This document shows, piece after piece, positions 2,545 through 43,929 of a stretch of 64,000 bases of DNA; position 1 is the stretch's first letter; the number at the start of each line of letters is the position of its first letter. The stretch lies in contig CAWBQM010000001.1 in assembly GCA_963790955.1 (NCBI GenBank), positions 262,285 to 326,284 on the forward strand. The letters are read 5' to 3'. Position numbers and translations under genes: made by a program. Under the pieces are notes generated by a model, which saw nothing but the letters and a program-made list of their open reading frames with translations, searched no databases and was not told where the DNA came from. This DNA comes from an uncultured Chloroflexia bacterium (GTDB taxonomy: Bacteria; Chloroflexota; Limnocylindria; Limnocylindrales; CSP1-4).

Positions 2545-3309
2545 ATGTACGCAGTCATCGAGACCGGCGGTAAGCAGTACCGCGTCGAGGTCGGCACCGA
2601 GCTCGAGGTCGAGTTGCTCGAGGCCGAGCCGGGCCAGTCGATCCAGCTGGAGCGCGTCCTGCTCGTGGCCGACGGCGACGAGGCGGCAGTCGGGCGACCG
2701 GTCGTGGCCGACGCCACGGTCAGTGCCGAGGTGCTCCGCCAGGATCGCGGCGACAAGGTCATCTCGTTCAAGTACCGGCCGAAGGCGCGGCGACGGGTCA
2801 AGCACGGCCACCGCCAGGAGCTGACGATCCTGCGCATCAGCGACATCCGTTCGGTGGCAAGAGCGCTGCCGATGCGGCCTGCAAGGCCGAGGCCGATCGC
2901 CAAGACCGAGCGCGAGCGGCTCGAGGAGGCCGCGGCCCGCCAGGCCGCCGAGGACGCCGCGCTCGCGGCCCGCCTCGCCGGCCAGCAGGCGCCCGCCACC
3001 CCGGCCCCGAAGCGTGCTCGTGCCTCGAAGGCGTCGGACACGGCGGGGCCGAGGAGAAGCCGTCGACGCCGCGCCGCCGAACCGAGGCGAAGGCCGCCGA
3101 GGCGGGCACGAAGACCGAGGCGGGCACGAAGACCGAGGCGCGCAGCGAAGACCGAGTCGCGCACGAAGACCGCGGGGCGCACGAAGACGGGCACCGCCGA
3201 CAAGGGCGATGCGGGCTCCAAGACCGACGCCGGCACGGGCGCAGCCGATGCGGCCGGCACCGAGGCGAGCGCCAAGCCGCGCCGCCGCAGCACGAAGAAG
3301 GACGACTGA
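2545..3309 (+). CDS. rplU: 50S ribosomal protein bL21 with long Ala/Lys/Thr/Glu-rich C-terminal extension
   Basis: '[14 protein letters not shown]...[26 protein letters not shown]' followed by about 150 low-complexity residues; the extension probably contains indels. Confidence 0.95.
3105..3190 (+). repeat. Degenerate ~18-bp tandem repeat inside the rplU extension
   Basis: Repeated unit 'gaagaccgaggcgggcac' and variants, about 4-5 copies, encoding TKTEAG-like hexapeptides. Confidence 0.7.
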
Positions 3310-3311
3310 CC

Positions 3312-3602
3312 ATGGCCCACAAGAAAGCCGGATCGAGCTCGAAGAACGGGCGCGACAGCGTCGGCCAGCGGCTCGGCGTCAAGGTCGGCGACGGCCAGCT
3401 CGTCAGCGCCGGATCGATCATCGTCCGCCAGCGGGGGATGACGTTCCTGGCCGGGAGCGGCGCGGGCCTCGGGCGCGACTACACCGTGTTCGCCACCGTG
3501 GACGGTCACGTCCGGTTCGAGCACGCGACGAAGGACAAGAAGCGCATCCGGGTCGTACCGAAGGCCGAGGCTGCCGCCGAACCGGCGCCGCCCTCCGCCT
3601 GA
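3312..3602 (+). CDS. rpmA: 50S ribosomal protein bL27
   Basis: '[24 protein letters not shown]...IIVRQRG'. Confidence 0.97.
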
Positions 3603-4010: not shown

Positions 4011-4963
4011 ATGCCCAGATTCACCTACGGTGGCCAGGCTCTCATCGAGGGCGTGCTCATGCGCGGTCGCGATGCGATCGCGGTGGCGCTGCGCCATCCC
4101 GACGGCCGCATCGTGTGGGCCACCGAACGGCTCGACTCCGGATTCCACGGCACGCGCTGGTCGAGACTGCCGTTCGTGCGCGGGCTCGTCGTCCTGTACG
4201 AGACGCTCGTCGTCGGCACGCGCTGGCTGGTCCGCTCGGCGAGCGTGGCCGCGGCCGAGGAGGGCGTGGAGCTCGGCAAGGGCTCGATCGCGCTGATGCT
4301 CGGCCTGACGCTCGCCGCCGGCGTCGGGCATCTTCTTCCTGCTGCCACTGCTCGTCGCGAGCGCGGCGGCCGGCAACGTCGAGAACGGCCTCGTCCAGCA
4401 CGCCATCGAGGGCCTCGTCCGGGTCGGCATCTTCTTCGCCTACCTGATCGTCATCTCGATGGCACCCGACGTGCGGCCGGGTGTTCCAGTACCACGGCGC
4501 CGAGCACATGACGATCCACGCCCTCGAGCATGGCGATCCGCTCACACTCGATGCCGTGCGCCGCTATCCGACCGCGCACCGCGCTGCGGGACCGAGTTCC
4601 TCGTGGTCGTCATCGCGCTCTCGATCGTGGCCTTCAGCCTGGTCGGCCGGCAGGAGGCGTTGGTCATGGTCGGCAGCCGGATCGTGCTCATCCCGGTCAT
4701 CGCCGCCGTCGGCTACGAGCTCCTTCGGGCGGGTGCGCGCTATCGCTCCAACCCGATCGTCCGGGCGATCATGTACCGCCGGCATCCTGGTCCAGATGAT
4801 CACGACCAGCAGCCGATCGACGGACATGATCGAGGTCGCGATCGTCTCGATGGAGCAGGCGCTGGTGGCCGACGGCGAGACCCTGCCGGCCGGCAGCGGC
4901 ATCCTCGAGCGCGATCCGCTCATCCTGCCCGGCGCGGCGCCGGCACCGGGCTCGGGCACGTGA
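4011..4963 (+). CDS. DUF1385 (YqhQ-like) membrane protein, frameshifted
   Basis: 'YGGQALIEGVLMRG', 'FQYHGAEHMTIHA', 'CGT(E)FL', 'QMITT...DMIEVAI' spread over several frames. Confidence 0.85.
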
Positions 4964-6081
4964 GCACCGCCACCCGGGACGGCTTCGAAGCCAAGCTGTC
5001 CGACGTCGCCCACCAGTACGACGACCTGCAGGCCGAGCTGCTGCTGCCGGCCACGAGCGCCGATCCCGACGCGCTGCGACGCCTGGGCCGGGAGCTCGCC
5101 CGACTGGAGCCGGTGGTCGCCGCCTTCCGGCGCCTCGAGGCCGTTCGTGCGGAGCTCGCCGGGGCGCACGAGATGCGGGACGCCGAGCACGACGAGGAGC
5201 TCCGGGCGCTGGCCCGTGACGAGATCGAGCGCCTCCAGGCCGACGAGGTCCGGCTGGTCAAGGAGCTGCAAGGTCCTGCTCCTTCCGCGCGACCCGAACG
5301 ACGAACGCAGCGTGGTCATGGAGATCCGGGCCGGCGCCGGTGGCGAGGAGGCGGCGCTGTTCGCCGCGGAGCTGCTGCGCATGTATCTCGCGCTACGCCG
5401 AGCGGCGGCGCTGGCACGCGGACGTCGTGAGCCGCAACGAGACCGGCATCGGCGGCGTGAAGGAGGCGATCCTCGAGGTCAGCGGACGCGGTGCCTACAG
5501 CCGGCTCAAGTACGAGGGCGGCATGCACCGAGTGCAGCGCATCCCGAGCACCGAGTCGTCCGGTCGGATCCACACCTCGACGGCGACGGTCATCGTCATG
5601 CCCGAGGCGGAGGACGTCGAGATCGACATCGACGAGGAGCACGACCTGCGGATCGAGGTCAAGCGCTCGTCCGGCCCGGGCGGCCAGTCGCGTGAACACG
5701 ACCAACTCGGCCGTGCGCATCACCCACCTGCCCGACCGGCCTCGTCGTCGAGATCCAGGACGAGCGCAGCCAGATCAAGAACAAGGCCAAGGCGCTCTCG
5801 ATCCTGCGCAGCCGGCTGCTACGAGATGGAGCTCGCCAAGCAGCGCGCGGCGCGAGTCGGCGACGCGCCGATCGATGATCGGAGCGGGCGACCGCGCGGA
5901 GAAGATCCGGACCTACAACTACCCCCAGAACCGCGTGACCGACCACCGAATCCACAAGGACCTGCACGATCTGCCGGGCTTCCTCGCGGGCGATCTGGAC
6001 GAGATGATCGATTCCCTGCGCGCCAGCGACCAGGCCGATCGCCTGAGCGAGATCGGGCAGGAATCGGGTCTTGCCGTCTGA
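4960..6081 (+). CDS. prfA: Peptide chain release factor 1, frameshifted
   Basis: '[15 protein letters not shown]', '[18 protein letters not shown]' (PxT anticodon of RF1), 'SGPGGQ', '[15 protein letters not shown]'. Confidence 0.93.
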
Positions 6082-36151: not shown

Positions 36152-37552
36152 TCAGTACGAGAAGCCGAAGAGGCCGGGCGGCAGGTGGATGCCCATGACC
36201 TCGAACTTCTCGACGAACTTCGGCCGGATGCCGGTCGGCTTGAGCCGACCCTGGATCTTGCCTTCGATGACGCCCGTCTGCTCGAAGACGAACACATCCT
36301 GCATCACGATGACGTCACCTTCCATGCCCTGGACCTCGGTGATGTTCGTGATCCGCCGGGTGCCGTCCTTGAGGCGGGCCTGGTGGACGATGAGGTCGAC
36401 GGCCGAGGCGACCTGCTCGCGAATGGCGCGCAGCGGCAGGTCGACGCCGGCCATGAGGACCATGGTCTCGAGACGGGACAGCATGTCCCGCGGGCTGTTG
36501 GCGTGGCCTGTCGACATCGAGCCGTCGTGGCCCGTGTTCATGGCCTGAAGCATGTCCAGCGCCTCGCCCGAACGGCACTCGCCGACGATGATGCGATCGG
36601 GCCGCATGCGCAGCGCGTTGCGCACCAGCTCCCGGATCGGGATGGCGCCCTTGCCCTCGATGTTCGGCGGTCGCGACTCGAGCGTCACGACGTGCTCCTG
36701 GCGGAGCTGGAGCTCGGCCGCGTCCTCGATCGTCACGATGCGCTCGTCGTTCGGGATGAACGACGACAGGACGTTGAGGGTCGTGGTCTTGCCCGAGCCG
36801 GTGCCGCCGGACACGAACAGGTTGAGCCTCGCCTCGACGCAGGCCTTGAGGAAATCGAACATGTCGGGCGTCGCGGTGCCGAACCGGATGAGGTCGTCGG
36901 TCGTGTACGGCGAGGCGGCGAACTTCCGGATCGTGATGACCGGGCCAACGAGCGACAGGGGCGGAATGATCGCATTGACGCGCGAGCCGTCGGTCAGTCG
37001 GGCGTCGACCATCGGTGACGACTCGTCCACGCGCCGGCCGATCGGGGCGATGATCCGATCGATGATGCGCATGACGTGGTCGTCGTTCTGGAAGACGACG
37101 TTGGTGAGCTCGAGCTTGCCGGAGCGCTCGATGTAGACCTGGCGGGGGCCGTTGACCATGACCTCGGTGATGCTCTCGTCGCGCAGGAGCGGCTCGAGCG
37201 GGCCCAGGCCGATGATCTCGTCGGTGATCTGCTCCAGCATCCGGACCCGCTCGGCACGGGTCAGGGCGAGGCCTTCCTCGTCGATGACCTTGCCGAAGAT
37301 CTCCTCGATCTGGCGCCGGACCTCGACCTGGTTGGACAGGTCGAGCTTCGGGTCGAGATCCTGGATCACCCGGTTCTGGATCCGGAACTTCACGTCACGG
37401 AAGGATTCCCGGACCGGCGCCGAGCTCATGAGCCGCGGCGCCGCCGGTGCCACACCACCACCGGACGGCGGCGGAACGGCCGGTACGCCGGGCGAAGCCG
37501 GTCCCGGTGCGGCGCCTGGCCGCGCGCTTTCGATTCGCTTGAGCAGGGACAT
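36152..37552 (-). CDS. tadA: CpaF/TadA pilus assembly ATPase
   Basis: 'GLGPLEPLL', 'GGTGSGKTT', 'TIEDAAEL', '[11 protein letters not shown]', 'AMNTGHDGS'. Confidence 0.96.
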
Positions 37553-40933: not shown

Positions 40934-41104
40934 CTAGACCGAGTGGCCGACGTTGCTCAGGATCTGGCTGACCTGGCCGCCCAGGAAGATGAGGGCGATG
41001 ATCGCGACGATCGCGATGAGGGCGAGGATCAGCGCGTACTCCGCGAGACCCTGGCCTTCCTCGTCCCGACGAAGGGACGAGAGAAGCGTGTTGATGAGCG
41101 CCAT
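40934..41104 (-). CDS. flp: Flp pilin, copy 3
   Basis: MALINTLLSSLRRDEEG-QGLAEY...QVSQILSNVGHSV; two substitutions relative to copies 1 and 2. Confidence 0.93.
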   Translation of the reverse strand: MALINTLLSSLRRDEEGQGLAEYALILALIAIVAIIALIFLGGQVSQILSNVGHSV

Positions 41105-41308
41105 GCGGCTGCCTCCTGGAAGATGAGTACCCACCCCCGGATGAGGGCGCGGCAAAGATAGATGAGGCGCTATGCGATGGCCACTAGCCAGATGGTACCG
41201 GCGCCTGGCGGCCGAGCAGCCATCCCCAACAACGGTCCGGCCGCCCTGTGTTGATTGCGGTGGACTTCCGAGCTTGCCGTCGCGGCGTCCTGGCCGAGTC
41301 GAGCAGAC

Positions 41309-42403
41309 CTACGCGGTGGGCGAGACGATCTCGCCCTGGGCGGGCGTCCTCAGCAAGCCCGGGCCCAGAACGTAGTAGCGACCGCGCTTCTCGCCGGTCG
41401 CCAGCAGCCAGCCGCCCGTCACTGCGGCGTCGAGGTCGCGGGTGGTGCTCTGGGGAGAGCGACCCGTCAGCTCGATGTAGTCGCCGGCTCGTATGTGTCG
41501 ATTGACCCAGGCGTAGGCCAAACCGTCGATCATCGCCGACGGGAGCGATCCATCGGCAATCGCCCGGCGGATCTCGACCATGACTTGGCCGAGACCGCGG
41601 ATCCGCTCCAGGACGTCGTCGGCAGACCGTGTCAGCGAGGTCACGAAGTAACGGGCGAAAGGCGTAGCGTCATATCCGGGGGCGTAGTCCTGGCCCACGG
41701 CAGCGCGAATCGCCGCGAAGTAGGCGGAGCGATCGAGATCGAGCTGGGCATCGAGCGACACCAGGCCGCCGAGGGCGTAGCCGTGCTCAACGAGGATCAG
41801 TCTCGCGATCGCGCGGGCCGTCCGCCCATTGCCATCGTTGAACGGGTGGATCGCGACGAACTCGAGGTGCGCCAGGGCGGCAGCGACCGGAGGAGCATGT
41901 CGCTTGGTCGCTGTCCCAAGCCAGGCCGCGAACTCGTGCATGAGCTCGGGAACGTCGCCGGAGGGTGGCGTGCTGAAGATCGGATTGCCATCGGCGTCCA
42001 CCACACGGTTCTCCCCGCGGCGATACTCCCCGGAGGTGAGGAGCGGACTCTGGTTCCAGAGCACCCGCCGGTGAAGCTCCCTGATGACGGCTTCATCGGG
42101 TACGACGCGACGGGCGGCGAGCTCGTCGGCCAGAATGAGGGCATCCCGCGTGCCGATGATTTCGCGGGCTTCCTTGTTGCTGACCTTCGTCGAACCGTCG
42201 CCCGCAAGCAGTGCCTCGACCTCGACATCAGAGGCTGTGTTCCCCTCGATCCGCGCCGTGCCGCGAATGGTTCGCACCCATGCGCGACGACGCAGCCACC
42301 CCGCGTGGGTGGGGTCGATAGGCAGGTTGTCGAAGAGCCAGCGCCGCTGGTCGAGCTCGACGAGTGGTTTGGTGAGGGCTCGGCCCCGTAGTCGATACCG
42401 CAC
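41309..42403 (-). CDS. Class II Fic protein with C-terminal winged helix
   Basis: Catalytic 'HPFNDGNGRTAR', N-terminal autoinhibitory 'TARIEG', C-terminal 'QSTTRDLDAAVTGGWLLATGEKRGRYY'. GTG 42403 is the probable start. Confidence 0.9.
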   Translation of the reverse strand: MRYRLRGRALTKPLVELDQRRWLFDNLPIDPTHAGWLRRRAWVRTIRGTARIEGNTASDVEVEALLAGDGSTKVSNKEAREIIGTRDALILADELAARRVVPDEAVIRELHRRVLWNQSPLLTSGEYRRGENRVVDADGNPIFSTPPSGDVPELMHEFAAWLGTATKRHAPPVAAALAHLEFVAIHPFNDGNGRTARAIARLILVEHGYALGGLVSLDAQLDLDRSAYFAAIRAAVGQDYAPGYDATPFARYFVTSLTRSADDVLERIRGLGQVMVEIRRAIADGSLPSAMIDGLAYAWVNRHIRAGDYIELTGRSPQSTTRDLDAAVTGGWLLATGEKRGRYYVLGPGLLRTPAQGEIVSPTA

Positions 42404-42411
42404 AGGGACTC

Positions 42412-42452
42412 CGGTAATAGTCAGCAGTATTACCGTGGGCGGTAAAATGTCA
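42412..42452 (-). promoter_or_regulatory. Fic promoter/operator
   Basis: Perfect dyad cggtaata-N8-tattaccg (42412-42435) next to TTGACA (minus strand, 42447-42452). Confidence 0.6.
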
Positions 42453-42534
42453 AGGTATTGCCGCGTCAGAGCGCTCATCAGCGAAGCGCCCACGGCAATC
42501 AACACAGGGCGGTTCCCGCGTCCGCGCGAGGATT

Positions 42535-42744
42535 TCAGCGAGTCGCCTGGTCGATCGCGTTGCCGACGAGCTGGAGCGCGTCCGAGACGGCCTGACCGAA
42601 GAACACGAGGATGACCAGGGCCAGGATCGCCGACAGGCCGAGGATGAGCCCGTATTCGACGAGGCCCTGCCCGGCGGCGGCACGACACCTGACGGGATCC
42701 AGACGCCGGTGGAGGGCCGCACGCAGGCCCGCCGCGGCGGGCAT
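42535..42744 (-). CDS. flp: Flp pilin, copy 4 (divergent), translationally coupled to the upstream pseudokinase
   Basis: 'AAG-QGLVEYGLILGLSAILALVILVFFG'; TGATG stop/start overlap at 42742-42746. Confidence 0.85.
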   Translation of the reverse strand: MPAAAGLRAALHRRLDPVRCRAAAGQGLVEYGLILGLSAILALVILVFFGQAVSDALQLVGNAIDQATR

Positions 42745-43929
42745 CAGATCTCCGGCGCCTCCGGGATGTCCGTGACGAGGCGCAGCCCGGCACCCTCGTC
42801 GAGCAGCTCGGCGGACAGCCCCAGGGTGGCCGCCCGGGCTGAGATCTCGCGCCAGACCGGTGGCGGCAGGGTCGCCTGGCTCGCGGAACGCGCCGCCTCC
42901 GCGGCCGCGACGGCGCCGGCGCGACGGTCCTCGATCATGGCGGCGAGGGCCGGTGGCAGATCCTTGTCCGGTGCGGCCACGTCGGGCGGCGCCGGTTGCT
43001 CCTCGACCTCCCGGTACGCGCGGACCTCGCATTCCAGCCGCTCGTCGGCCCAGTCCAGGCGGATCGCCACGCGATCGGGTCGGGCATCGAGATAGGCGGC
43101 CAGCGCCTCGTCGAGGATCCGGAACAGCCCGCTCTCGATCTCCATCGACAGGCGCCGGTCGGAGCCTTGCGACGTGACCTCGACCGGGATCTGGCCGCGC
43201 CGGCCGCGCTCGCGCGCCGAGCGACGGATCGTCGGCACCAGGCCGAGGTCGTCGAGGACCATCGGTCGCACGTCGAAGATGAACGACTTGGTCGCGTCGA
43301 GCGTCTGCTGGACCATCGCGACGAGGAGCTTGATCTCGGCGCGTGCCTGCTCGGCGTCACGACCCAGCATGCGATCCACGATCTCGGCCTGGAGGACGAT
43401 GTTGGTCAGGCTCTGGGCCGGTCCGTCATGCATCGCCCGGGCGATCTCGCGGCGCAGGTCCTCCTGCGCGCCGAGCATGAGGCGCGACACGGACGGTGAA
43501 AGGGGCGCGCCCGGCGCGACCGCGACCGCCGTGCCCGACTCGCCCGGGACCCCGGTGGACGGCCCTTCGGCCTGCCCGGCGGACGCGAGCGCCTCGGCGT
43601 AGCCGGCCAGGCCGTCGCGATAGCGCGCGCAGCGCCCGTTGCTTGCCATCGAGGACGTCGACCTGGGCCTCCATGACCGCGGCCCGGCGGGTGAGCGGGA
43701 CGAGCTGCGCGTTGAGCTCACCGCGTTCGCCCTGGTCGGCGTCCGGCGCGAGCGCTCCCAGCTTCTCGGCGACGGCGGTCCGGCGCGTCTCGTGCCGGGC
43801 CGCCTCCGTGCGAGCCTGTGTGACGAGCATCTCGATCTCGGTCAGCTCCTTGTCGAGCGCCGCGATCTCGTCGGCGAGGCGCACGGCAAGCGCGGGAGGC
43901 GGATCGTCGGCCGAGGGTGGTTCCGTCAC
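42744..43929 (-). CDS. DegS-like HisKA_3 protein with degenerate ATP-binding domain (pseudokinase); one indel near 43630
   Basis: Coiled-coil N-terminus; H-box 'EIARAMHDGPAQSLTN' intact. N-box reads 'LFRILDEALAAYLDA'; DxGxG and G2 motifs are absent. Confidence 0.8.

Follow-up and report, generated by a model that had tools for sequence, protein, structure and literature searches.

A fic gene between Tad pilin genes of an uncultured Limnocylindria bacterium lies in a probable transposase-less, inverted-repeat-bounded gene cassette

The mobile insertion cassettes (MICs) derived from TnXax1 in Xanthomonas frequently have shortened or solo inverted repeats (IRs), and duplications accompany only some of the copies (PMC4337579); MIC231, derived from IS231 in the Bacillus cereus group, is another example of such a cassette (PMC6199540, PMC6542083). 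SoFic-type proteins, in a separate line of work, have been described as abortive-infection defence toxins that act via AMPylation (PMC12249575). Here we analyse a 64,000-nucleotide stretch (hereafter the window) of contig CAWBQM010000001.1 from an uncultured Chloroflexia bacterium placed in the class Limnocylindria, in which a fic gene with its own promoter occupies a 1,272-bp segment delimited by two IR arms amid the pilin genes of a Tad/Flp locus (Table 1). We conclude that the segment is probably a transposase-less, IR-bounded, MIC-like gene cassette with fic as its cargo, bearing diverged ends of an arm family that also surrounds other genes, and inserted between the pilin genes.

On the minus strand the Tad/Flp locus comprises a LuxR-type regulator, a HisKA_3 kinase-like gene, the flp4-type pilin gene, the segment, flp3, flp2, flp1, cpaB and cpaE, with the flp4-type gene on one side of the segment and the other three pilin genes on the other, just as a preliminary description of this DNA had placed it, between pilin 4 and pilins 1-3. 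A metagenome scan with the kinase-like neighbour as query returned 80 loci at 52-65% identity, half of which (40) hold both pilin types. Across these 40 two-pilin loci the order kinase-like gene, flp4-type gene, flp gene is conserved, and the flp4-type-to-flp intergenic region has a median length of 124 nt (range 96-224) as against 1430 nt in the window, an excess equal to the segment itself. No fic gene is present at any of the 80 loci. The same is seen in three genomes that carry fic elsewhere (G407, G401 and G182) and whose CpaF is 93-95% identical to that of the window genome: their flp4-type-to-flp spacer is only ~90-225 nt long and without fic. Because the relatives' spacers are short and the excess length matches the segment, the segment is, on this comparative evidence, an insertion relative to them, and the scenario raised earlier in which relatives carry fic at the same site without the repeats is contradicted by the 40 loci and the three genomes alike. 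The empty-site relatives are family-level only, so the insertion site is not defined to the nucleotide. The landing place is a variable spacer, 3' of the flp4-type gene and before the flp3 promoter, and both pilin genes and the promoter are intact; the flp promoter and leader are likewise kept in the intergenic regions of the 40 relatives. This leader, to note it in its own right, is strongly conserved family-wide (window 41105-41217; loci L033-L109), with GGTACCATC separated by 3-4 nt from CTAGTG and then TATAGTGGCGCAGCCCTC..GGGGGTGAGTACTCATCCAGGAGG with a small hairpin, and may be a regulatory leader.

The two arms that delimit the segment are complementary at 22 of 23 positions, the first 18 without a mismatch, exactly as first described. 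They are spaced 1226 nt apart, and the pairing continues imperfectly inward to ~30 nt (41241-41270 / 42482-42512). With up to three mismatches allowed, these are the only copies in the 64-kb window, where none is expected from 100 shuffles. No third copy was found in the genome's own assembly (2.44 Mb in 10 contigs, 53% complete), in which matches at up to six mismatches stay at the level of shuffled patterns. A 15-mer searched with one mismatch in this genome and 400 further genomes of the family recovered the two arms plus chance singletons only, the exact 18-mer occurs in ~186,000 species genomes as just 10 chance singletons, and a 17-mer match in genome G353 is isolated and intergenic. A dispersed palindromic repeat of the REP/REPIN type, considered as a candidate, is ruled out by there being only the two copies in this genome and by the singletons in relatives; the suspicion that the repeat might be a palindromic element dispersed genome-wide was thus borne out neither in the own genome nor in the relatives searched.

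Between the arms only fic has family support, the remaining open reading frames (ORFs) of the segment being overlapping frames typical of GC-rich DNA, and this agrees with the initial account of a segment holding fic and its promoter/operator and nothing more. ORF reading, a Pfam scan and inspection of the junctions revealed no transposase, recombinase or target-site duplication (TSD) in the segment, again as previously noted. Its GC content is 66.4%, compared with 70-71% for the genome contigs, 71.9% for the 5 kb to the right, 67.0% for the 5 kb to the left and 64.2% for the pilin block. The suggestion that the segment is more AT-rich than its flanks therefore holds against the genome and the right flank and fails against the left flank, which is about equal.

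The fic unit occurs well beyond this locus: of the 401 family genomes, 38 have it, never in more than one copy, and they represent 17 of 49 genera. The 39 fic loci fall into 31 flank-context groups, and genera g7 and g36 have four different contexts each. Homology between loci runs from the promoter block to shortly past the stop codon; genomes G158 and G401, which belong to different genera, share only 1187 bp there, at 90.7% identity. Neighbours of fic in other genomes include IS5-like, PIN, TacA and AlkZ genes. The fic unit is, as judged from these alignments, a discrete, patchily distributed module found in many contexts. An excess of Fic identity (83-91%) was considered as proof of horizontal transfer and rejected: Fic identity is not anomalous, because the CpaF/TadA of G000 reaches 91-95% identity to that of the genomes compared. 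The CpaF/TadA ATPase of the window (36152-37552, minus strand) is itself 91-95% identical to orthologues in other genera of the family, and G401 has two identical copies of this gene on different contigs. In the reverse comparison, at the fic site of G028, G000 proved to lack the ask region. When the two flanks of the G407 cassette were joined and used as a query against 30 genomes of that genus, the right flank alone was returned, the left flank being a variable island.

An IR-bounded architecture of fic plus promoter also exists at G158, G407 and locus L126. The fic gene of G158 is enclosed by a perfect 18-bp IR, TCGTGGGTGGTGGCTTCG, which an ENA contig carries around its own fic at 16/17, and the IR of G407 measures roughly 24-30 bp. 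G158, the ENA contig and G407 share a common geometry, in which the upstream arm immediately precedes the promoter block on its 5' side and the downstream arm begins a few nt past the stop codon. The IR scores of the window (39 bits) and G158 (35) exceed the best of 150 mismatched upstream/downstream pairings (27.6), and gapped same-locus comparison gives z-values of 6.8 for the window, 6.4 for G158 and 6.2 for G407. Homology extends across loci: upstream arms scored against reverse-complemented downstream arms reach 26, against a null maximum of 16, and CCGTGCGGCAGGAGG stands upstream of fic in one contig and, as its reverse complement, downstream in G399.

Arm models derived solely from sequence were then searched over the 401 family genomes. 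One (R1) included the window arms, so that its matches on those arms are circular, and the other (R2) was built without them. The arm family so defined consists of ~36-40-bp terminal IRs with the consensus CCTGTGCGGCAGGAGGTGTTGTTGGTGGTGGCTTC and tips CCTGTGCGGCAGGAGG... and CCTGTGCGGCAGG, and it surrounds passengers other than fic. Inverted pairs lacking fic enclose HipA with an Xre-type helix-turn-helix protein in G229, a HAAS-domain protein in G095 and a 95-aa ORF in G216, and G252 has an outer pair plus an inner pair, the latter with a glyoxalase gene as passenger; solo arms adjoin GNAT, nucleotidyltransferase and SRPBCC genes. Four of the five fic-less pairs have 8-bp direct repeats at their tips, namely CGGGACGG at the G252 outer pair, GTGTTGTT at the G252 inner pair and GGGCGGCG in G216 (each 8/8), and CGACGGGG/CGACGAGG in G095 (7/8). 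In G252 (locus L207, G252:C7:261700-266900, arms at 1552-1574, 1691-1727, 2273-2309 and 3561-3597) the 0.6-kb glyoxalase cassette has inserted into a 2-kb cassette, within the upstream arm of the latter. Such duplications, together with a nested insertion, are a signature of cut-and-paste or replicative DDE transposition, and the 8-bp target duplications therefore indicate a DDE-type transposase acting in trans. Since homologous arms flank fic elsewhere and flank other passenger genes as well, the arms are, by this homology, part of the element and not of the target.

Multiple arm copies are confined to genus g15, often at contig ends. Closely spaced or tandem tips, up to three per 80 nt, were observed at loci L219 (G274:C255:346-427) and L218 (G169:C178; arms at 1452-1492, 3300-3317 and 4046-4105), which suggests clustered or repeated insertions in this genus. 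A strict arm pattern applied to 25 fic-bearing genomes recovered, besides the arms already known, a single solo copy, in G151. There (locus L166, G151:C18:20600-32700, ~6013-6060) a canonical arm, with a TTGAC-containing stretch after it, separates genes for an ABC permease and a GntR-type regulator; the fic gene of this genome is on another contig, and the solo arm may be what a lost cassette has left behind.

The window copy resembles this family in several respects. The CCTGTG tip and an inner CTTCG/CGAAG motif are found in its arms as well, and with respect to the promoter block and the stop codon these stand where the canonical arms of G407, G158 and L126 do. The right arm corresponds in position, and partially in sequence, to the upstream fic-cassette arms of these three loci. 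The left arm resembles the downstream arm of G401, GTGTTGTTCGTGGTGGCTTCG, and with its flank scores 17 against the G252 inner arm, where 500 shuffles give a null maximum of 15.75 (p<0.002). Membership of the window arms in the arm family, resting as it does on position and pairwise similarity, is the weakest step of our argument, likely but not certain. A possible solo third arm (arm X in Table 1) is the second-best R2 match in the whole window (7.7 bits, E 0.35) and aligns to the arm family with a score of 15 (p 0.004). It lies in quasi-palindromic sequence and was not recovered by nhmmer on the genome. It could be the solo end of an earlier insertion, which would explain why the spacer, once emptied, is ~30 nt longer than the relatives' median.

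A source of transposase was sought between and beside the arms. ORFs next to solo arms, including the interiors of broken g15 contigs, contain no transposase domains, and a parent insertion sequence (IS) or transposon sharing the arm-family ends was tested for and not found in the family genomes sampled. In G216 (locus L208, G216:C57:4000-8600) an ISAzo13-family IS (771-2052), its transposase split over three frames, is nested in an arm-family cassette (422-2324). This IS has ends of its own, AAGGTCTTGTCAGGTAATAAC / GTTATTTCCTGACGGTCCCTT, and is 77-82% identical to intact copies; intact relatives are present in G407, G401 and G187. ISAzo13 as the cognate transposase was rejected, the G216 copy being nested with its own ends and the intact copies of G401 and G252 ending differently. 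The own genome retains only a PF07592 fragment as a trace of ISAzo13, at the end of contig C10 (356796-356948).

The passenger of the window cassette scores well above the Pfam cut-off for Fic (8e-18, 65.5 bits against 24), and its GTG start is backed by orthologues that begin MRYRL. The active-site motif HPFNDGNGRTAR at residues 186-197 satisfies the pattern HxFx(D/E)GNGRxxR. Class II Fic proteins are defined by an (S/T)xxxE(G/N) inhibitory motif that precedes the Fic core within one polypeptide, and the motif TARIEG is found at residues 49-54, in just that arrangement, so the protein is assigned to class II. The PADLOC SoFic model matches over residues 37-345, near full length, at 5.2e-40, the NCBIfam SoFic equivalog reaches 43.9 bits against a cut-off of 550, and the nearest solved structures are Fido/FICD/SoFic chains. 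Among the candidates scored, 454 homologues were found at E<=1e-40, the top ones with 70-91% identity and nearly all of them 364 aa in length. We consider the protein a candidate abortive-infection defence toxin on the strength of these resemblances. Two orthologues in genus g9 (G147:C42:12045-13124 and G394:C1:2522-3601; loci L147 and L149) are 74% identical, have one in-frame TAG each and share a common context; they are probably pseudogenes.

The fic promoter is the single promoter-like site in 41100-42760, where 0.2 are expected, and its block is present in every aligned fic locus; compared with G028, the block is 90% identical over 40 nt and the coding sequence 78%. Two palindromes, conserved across fic loci, overlap the -35 box and the region of the transcription start. 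They are presumed to be binding sites of the Fic winged-helix domain, through which fic is probably autorepressed. The segment showed no terminator-like site.

These features are consistent with the following course of events. The cassette would have landed in the variable spacer after the flp4-type gene and before the flp3 promoter, bringing a self-contained module, i.e. a putative class II Fic AMP-transferase with a built-in inhibitory helix and its own sigma-70-type promoter, the latter probably repressed by the Fic winged-helix domain at the two palindromic operators. Its 23-bp arms would be the worn form of the ~36-40-bp terminal IRs that bound fic and other accessory genes in Limnocylindria, and a DDE-type transposase supplied in trans would move such arm-bounded cassettes, making an 8-bp target duplication as it does so. 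Among the readings offered by the preliminary description, the non-autonomous mobile cassette is thus the one we favour, given the empty site in relatives, the 31 contexts of 39 loci and the arms shared with duplication-flanked passengers. Its alternative of remnant IS ends captures the divergence of this copy and its lack of a duplication, and is otherwise not the favoured reading. The window copy most likely goes back to an old insertion and is no longer mobile. Since no parent IS bearing these ends turned up in the genomes sampled, MIC-like is the safe label.

Several observations weigh against a cassette that transposed into this site. A nucleotide-exact empty site was not found, the metagenome scan reaching no more than 65% identity for the neighbour gene and the spacers of the family genomes failing to align. 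No target duplication was detected at the window, where every tip offset was inspected, or at any other fic cassette; the CCGC/GCGG just outside the CCTGTG tip is inverted instead of direct. Both window arms are divergent, with an 8-12-nt gap relative to the consensus, and the right arm's resemblance to the family falls short of significance (p 0.2). The left arm receives 5.4 bits (E 2) from R2, which does not report the right arm, and nhmmer found no further arm in the own genome at its 53% completeness. Of the fic loci, ~26 of 32 have lost one or both arms, and no cognate transposase was found between arms in the R1/R2 pairs of the 401 family genomes, in collections that were only sampled.

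Some of these points would be accommodated if the arms were cassette-derived and the segment had arrived by another route, such as recombination in horizontal transfer or insertion by an older solo end, or if the arms were kept for a non-transpositional role, e.g. insulating a toxic gene. Neither the window nor any fic cassette would then need a duplication, the possible third arm standing tip-to-tip with the left arm and the CCGC that several fic loci have in common just outside the canonical tip would fit, and the missing transposase partner would be no surprise. However, the fic-less members of the arm family, with their clean 8-bp duplications and nested insertion, indicate that the ends are transposition substrates, and old MIC copies commonly lose their duplications (PMC4337579); the upstream arm is 5' of the promoter and the arms therefore cannot pair within the fic transcript. 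We regard both versions as unlikely. If instead the window repeat were unrelated to the arm family and of local origin, by chance or by template-switch duplication, fic would be an island gene and the positional match a coincidence. The low R2 score of the window arms and the similarity value of the right arm would suit this view, but it is rendered improbable by the left arm's similarity, by the tip and inner motif in common with the family, by the agreement in position with the canonical arms of G407, G158 and L126, and by segment boundaries that are the limits of the extra DNA relative to the 40 relatives.

The two remaining explanations concern the pilin cluster itself. A recombinase acting in trans could flip the 1.27-kb segment as an invertible (phase-variable) switch, reversing the fic promoter relative to flp3/flp4 and altering pilin read-through; a 23-bp IR bounding a promoter-containing segment in an operon-like pilin cluster, and the lack of a terminator-like site inside that segment, are what such a switch would present. 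Yet in 37.5-44.7 kb the genes that could be named belong to the tad and pilin sets, apart from the histidine kinase-like gene and the LuxR-type regulator, and include no recombinase; relatives lack any segment at this site, and arms of the family are found around unrelated genes, in contexts equally unrelated, and come with 8-bp target duplications, a signature of transposition and not of inversion, all of which makes a switch very improbable. The arms might also be the two sides of a palindrome or terminator hairpin that already stood downstream of flp4, with fic inserted in the loop. With the insert removed they would form a perfect long hairpin 22 nt past the flp4 stop on the pilin-coding strand, hairpins of 14-16 bp follow each of flp1-3, and several relatives have hairpins in this spacer. 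This split hairpin was a leading idea at first and was dropped once the arms proved homologous between loci: they match fic flanks in other contexts (G401, G407 and G158) as well as the G252 inner arm, no relative examined has a similar palindrome in this spacer, and the 18-mer occurs among the species genomes as chance singletons only. We now give it hardly any credence.

Table 1. Coordinates of the fic cassette, its regulatory sites and the adjoining pilin genes in the window.
Feature	Position	Strand	Remarks
flp3 pilin gene	40934-41104	-	Pfam Flp_Fap 4e-5, below cut-off; motif GQGLAEYALIL; first gene downstream of cassette
flp3 promoter and 5' untranslated region	41105-41217	-	GGTACCATC..CTAGTG ... 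CCCTC..GGGGG .. AGGAGG; intact beside left arm
Possible solo third arm (arm X)	41218-41244	-	GCGGCCGGACCGTTGTTGGGGATGGCT; tip-to-tip with left arm, pointing to flp3; weak, ambiguous
Left IR arm	41241-41263	.	CCGCCCTGTGTTGATTGCGGTGG; downstream end of cassette on coding strand
fic gene	41309-42403	-	GTG start; 364 aa; class II Fic with C-terminal winged-helix domain; SoFic-type candidate defence toxin
Operator-like palindrome 1	42412-42435	.	CGGTAATA-N8-TATTACCG
fic promoter	42426-42453	-	TTGACA (42453-42448), 16-nt spacer, AATACT (42431-42426); sigma-70-like
Operator-like palindrome 2	42440-42463	.	CGGTAAAA-N8-TATTGCCG
Right IR arm	42490-42512	.	Upstream (promoter-side) end of cassette on coding strand
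flp4-type pilin gene	42535-42744	-	GQGLVEYGLIL type; directly upstream of insertion; stop codon 22 nt from right arm

The presence of a toxin-type gene amid a conserved Tad pilin cluster would be accounted for by an ordinary mobile-element insertion, and the main interest lies less in the window copy than in the cassette family and its missing transposase: the element is of an ordinary kind, the family is new. The comparison brings to light a family of cassettes that would move single defence or toxin-antitoxin (TA) genes, with their own promoters, among uncultured Limnocylindria, and a limited literature search found no comparable elements described for this class. We put forward, tentatively, that these may form an undescribed Limnocylindria family of promoter-equipped single-gene (or TA-pair) cassettes with ~36-40-bp ends, the tip CCTGTGCGGCAGG and an 8-bp duplication, a general shuttle for genes of defence, TA and stress functions (SoFic, HipBA, nucleotidyltransferase, GNAT and glyoxalase); the transposase mobilising them in trans would be rare, missing from the assemblies or of a type not yet recognised. 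If so, the family would represent an integron-independent cassette system instead of occasional IS debris. Were the partner transposase identified, the family would be a compact natural example of defence genes spreading one gene at a time. The locus also holds a warning for annotation, in that short unique IRs around accessory genes can be worn cassette ends, visible only when many loci are compared.

Set beside the systems already described, the passenger itself resembles the SoFic defence proteins and class II Fic enzymes (PADLOC SoFic; Shewanella structures 3EQX/3ZCN; PMC12249575) in its core motif HPFNDGNGRTAR, its N-terminal (S/T)xxxE(G/N) helix and its C-terminal winged helix, in the near full-length PADLOC match, and in being a single-gene module that in other genomes stands among TA and defence genes. 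Unlike those systems, it falls far under the NCBIfam equivalog cut-off and is followed by no small downstream antitoxin gene such as AS1 of E. coli Sofic, only 45 nt separating its stop codon from the arm. Invertons of the Hin/Gin and Fim type likewise have short IRs around a promoter-containing segment, here beside pilin genes, but the segment differs from them in having no invertase nearby, in its transposon-like ends, which in the arm family come with target duplications, and in being wholly absent from relatives.

Closer parallels are found among transposable elements. The IS families ISL3, IS1595 and IS256 make 8-bp duplications. Miniature inverted-repeat transposable elements (MITEs) and other non-autonomous derivatives of such families resemble the arm family in their 20-40-bp terminal repeats, their 8-bp TSD and their multi-copy occurrence, here in genus g15 and often at contig ends; MITEs are gene-less, whereas the arm-family elements carry promoter-equipped genes. 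The MICs differ in that no parent IS or transposon with arm-family ends was found in the genomes sampled, so that an IS origin of the arm family is putative, in the TSD, 8 bp for the arm family as against 5 bp for Tn3-type MICs, and in the host, an uncultured Chloroflexota class in which the window copy is strongly diverged and without a TSD. In their organisation they agree with the arm family: one or more passenger genes lie between IRs with no transposase inside, the same ends surround different passengers, ends are often solo or shortened, duplications accompany some copies, and copies can be nested and clustered.

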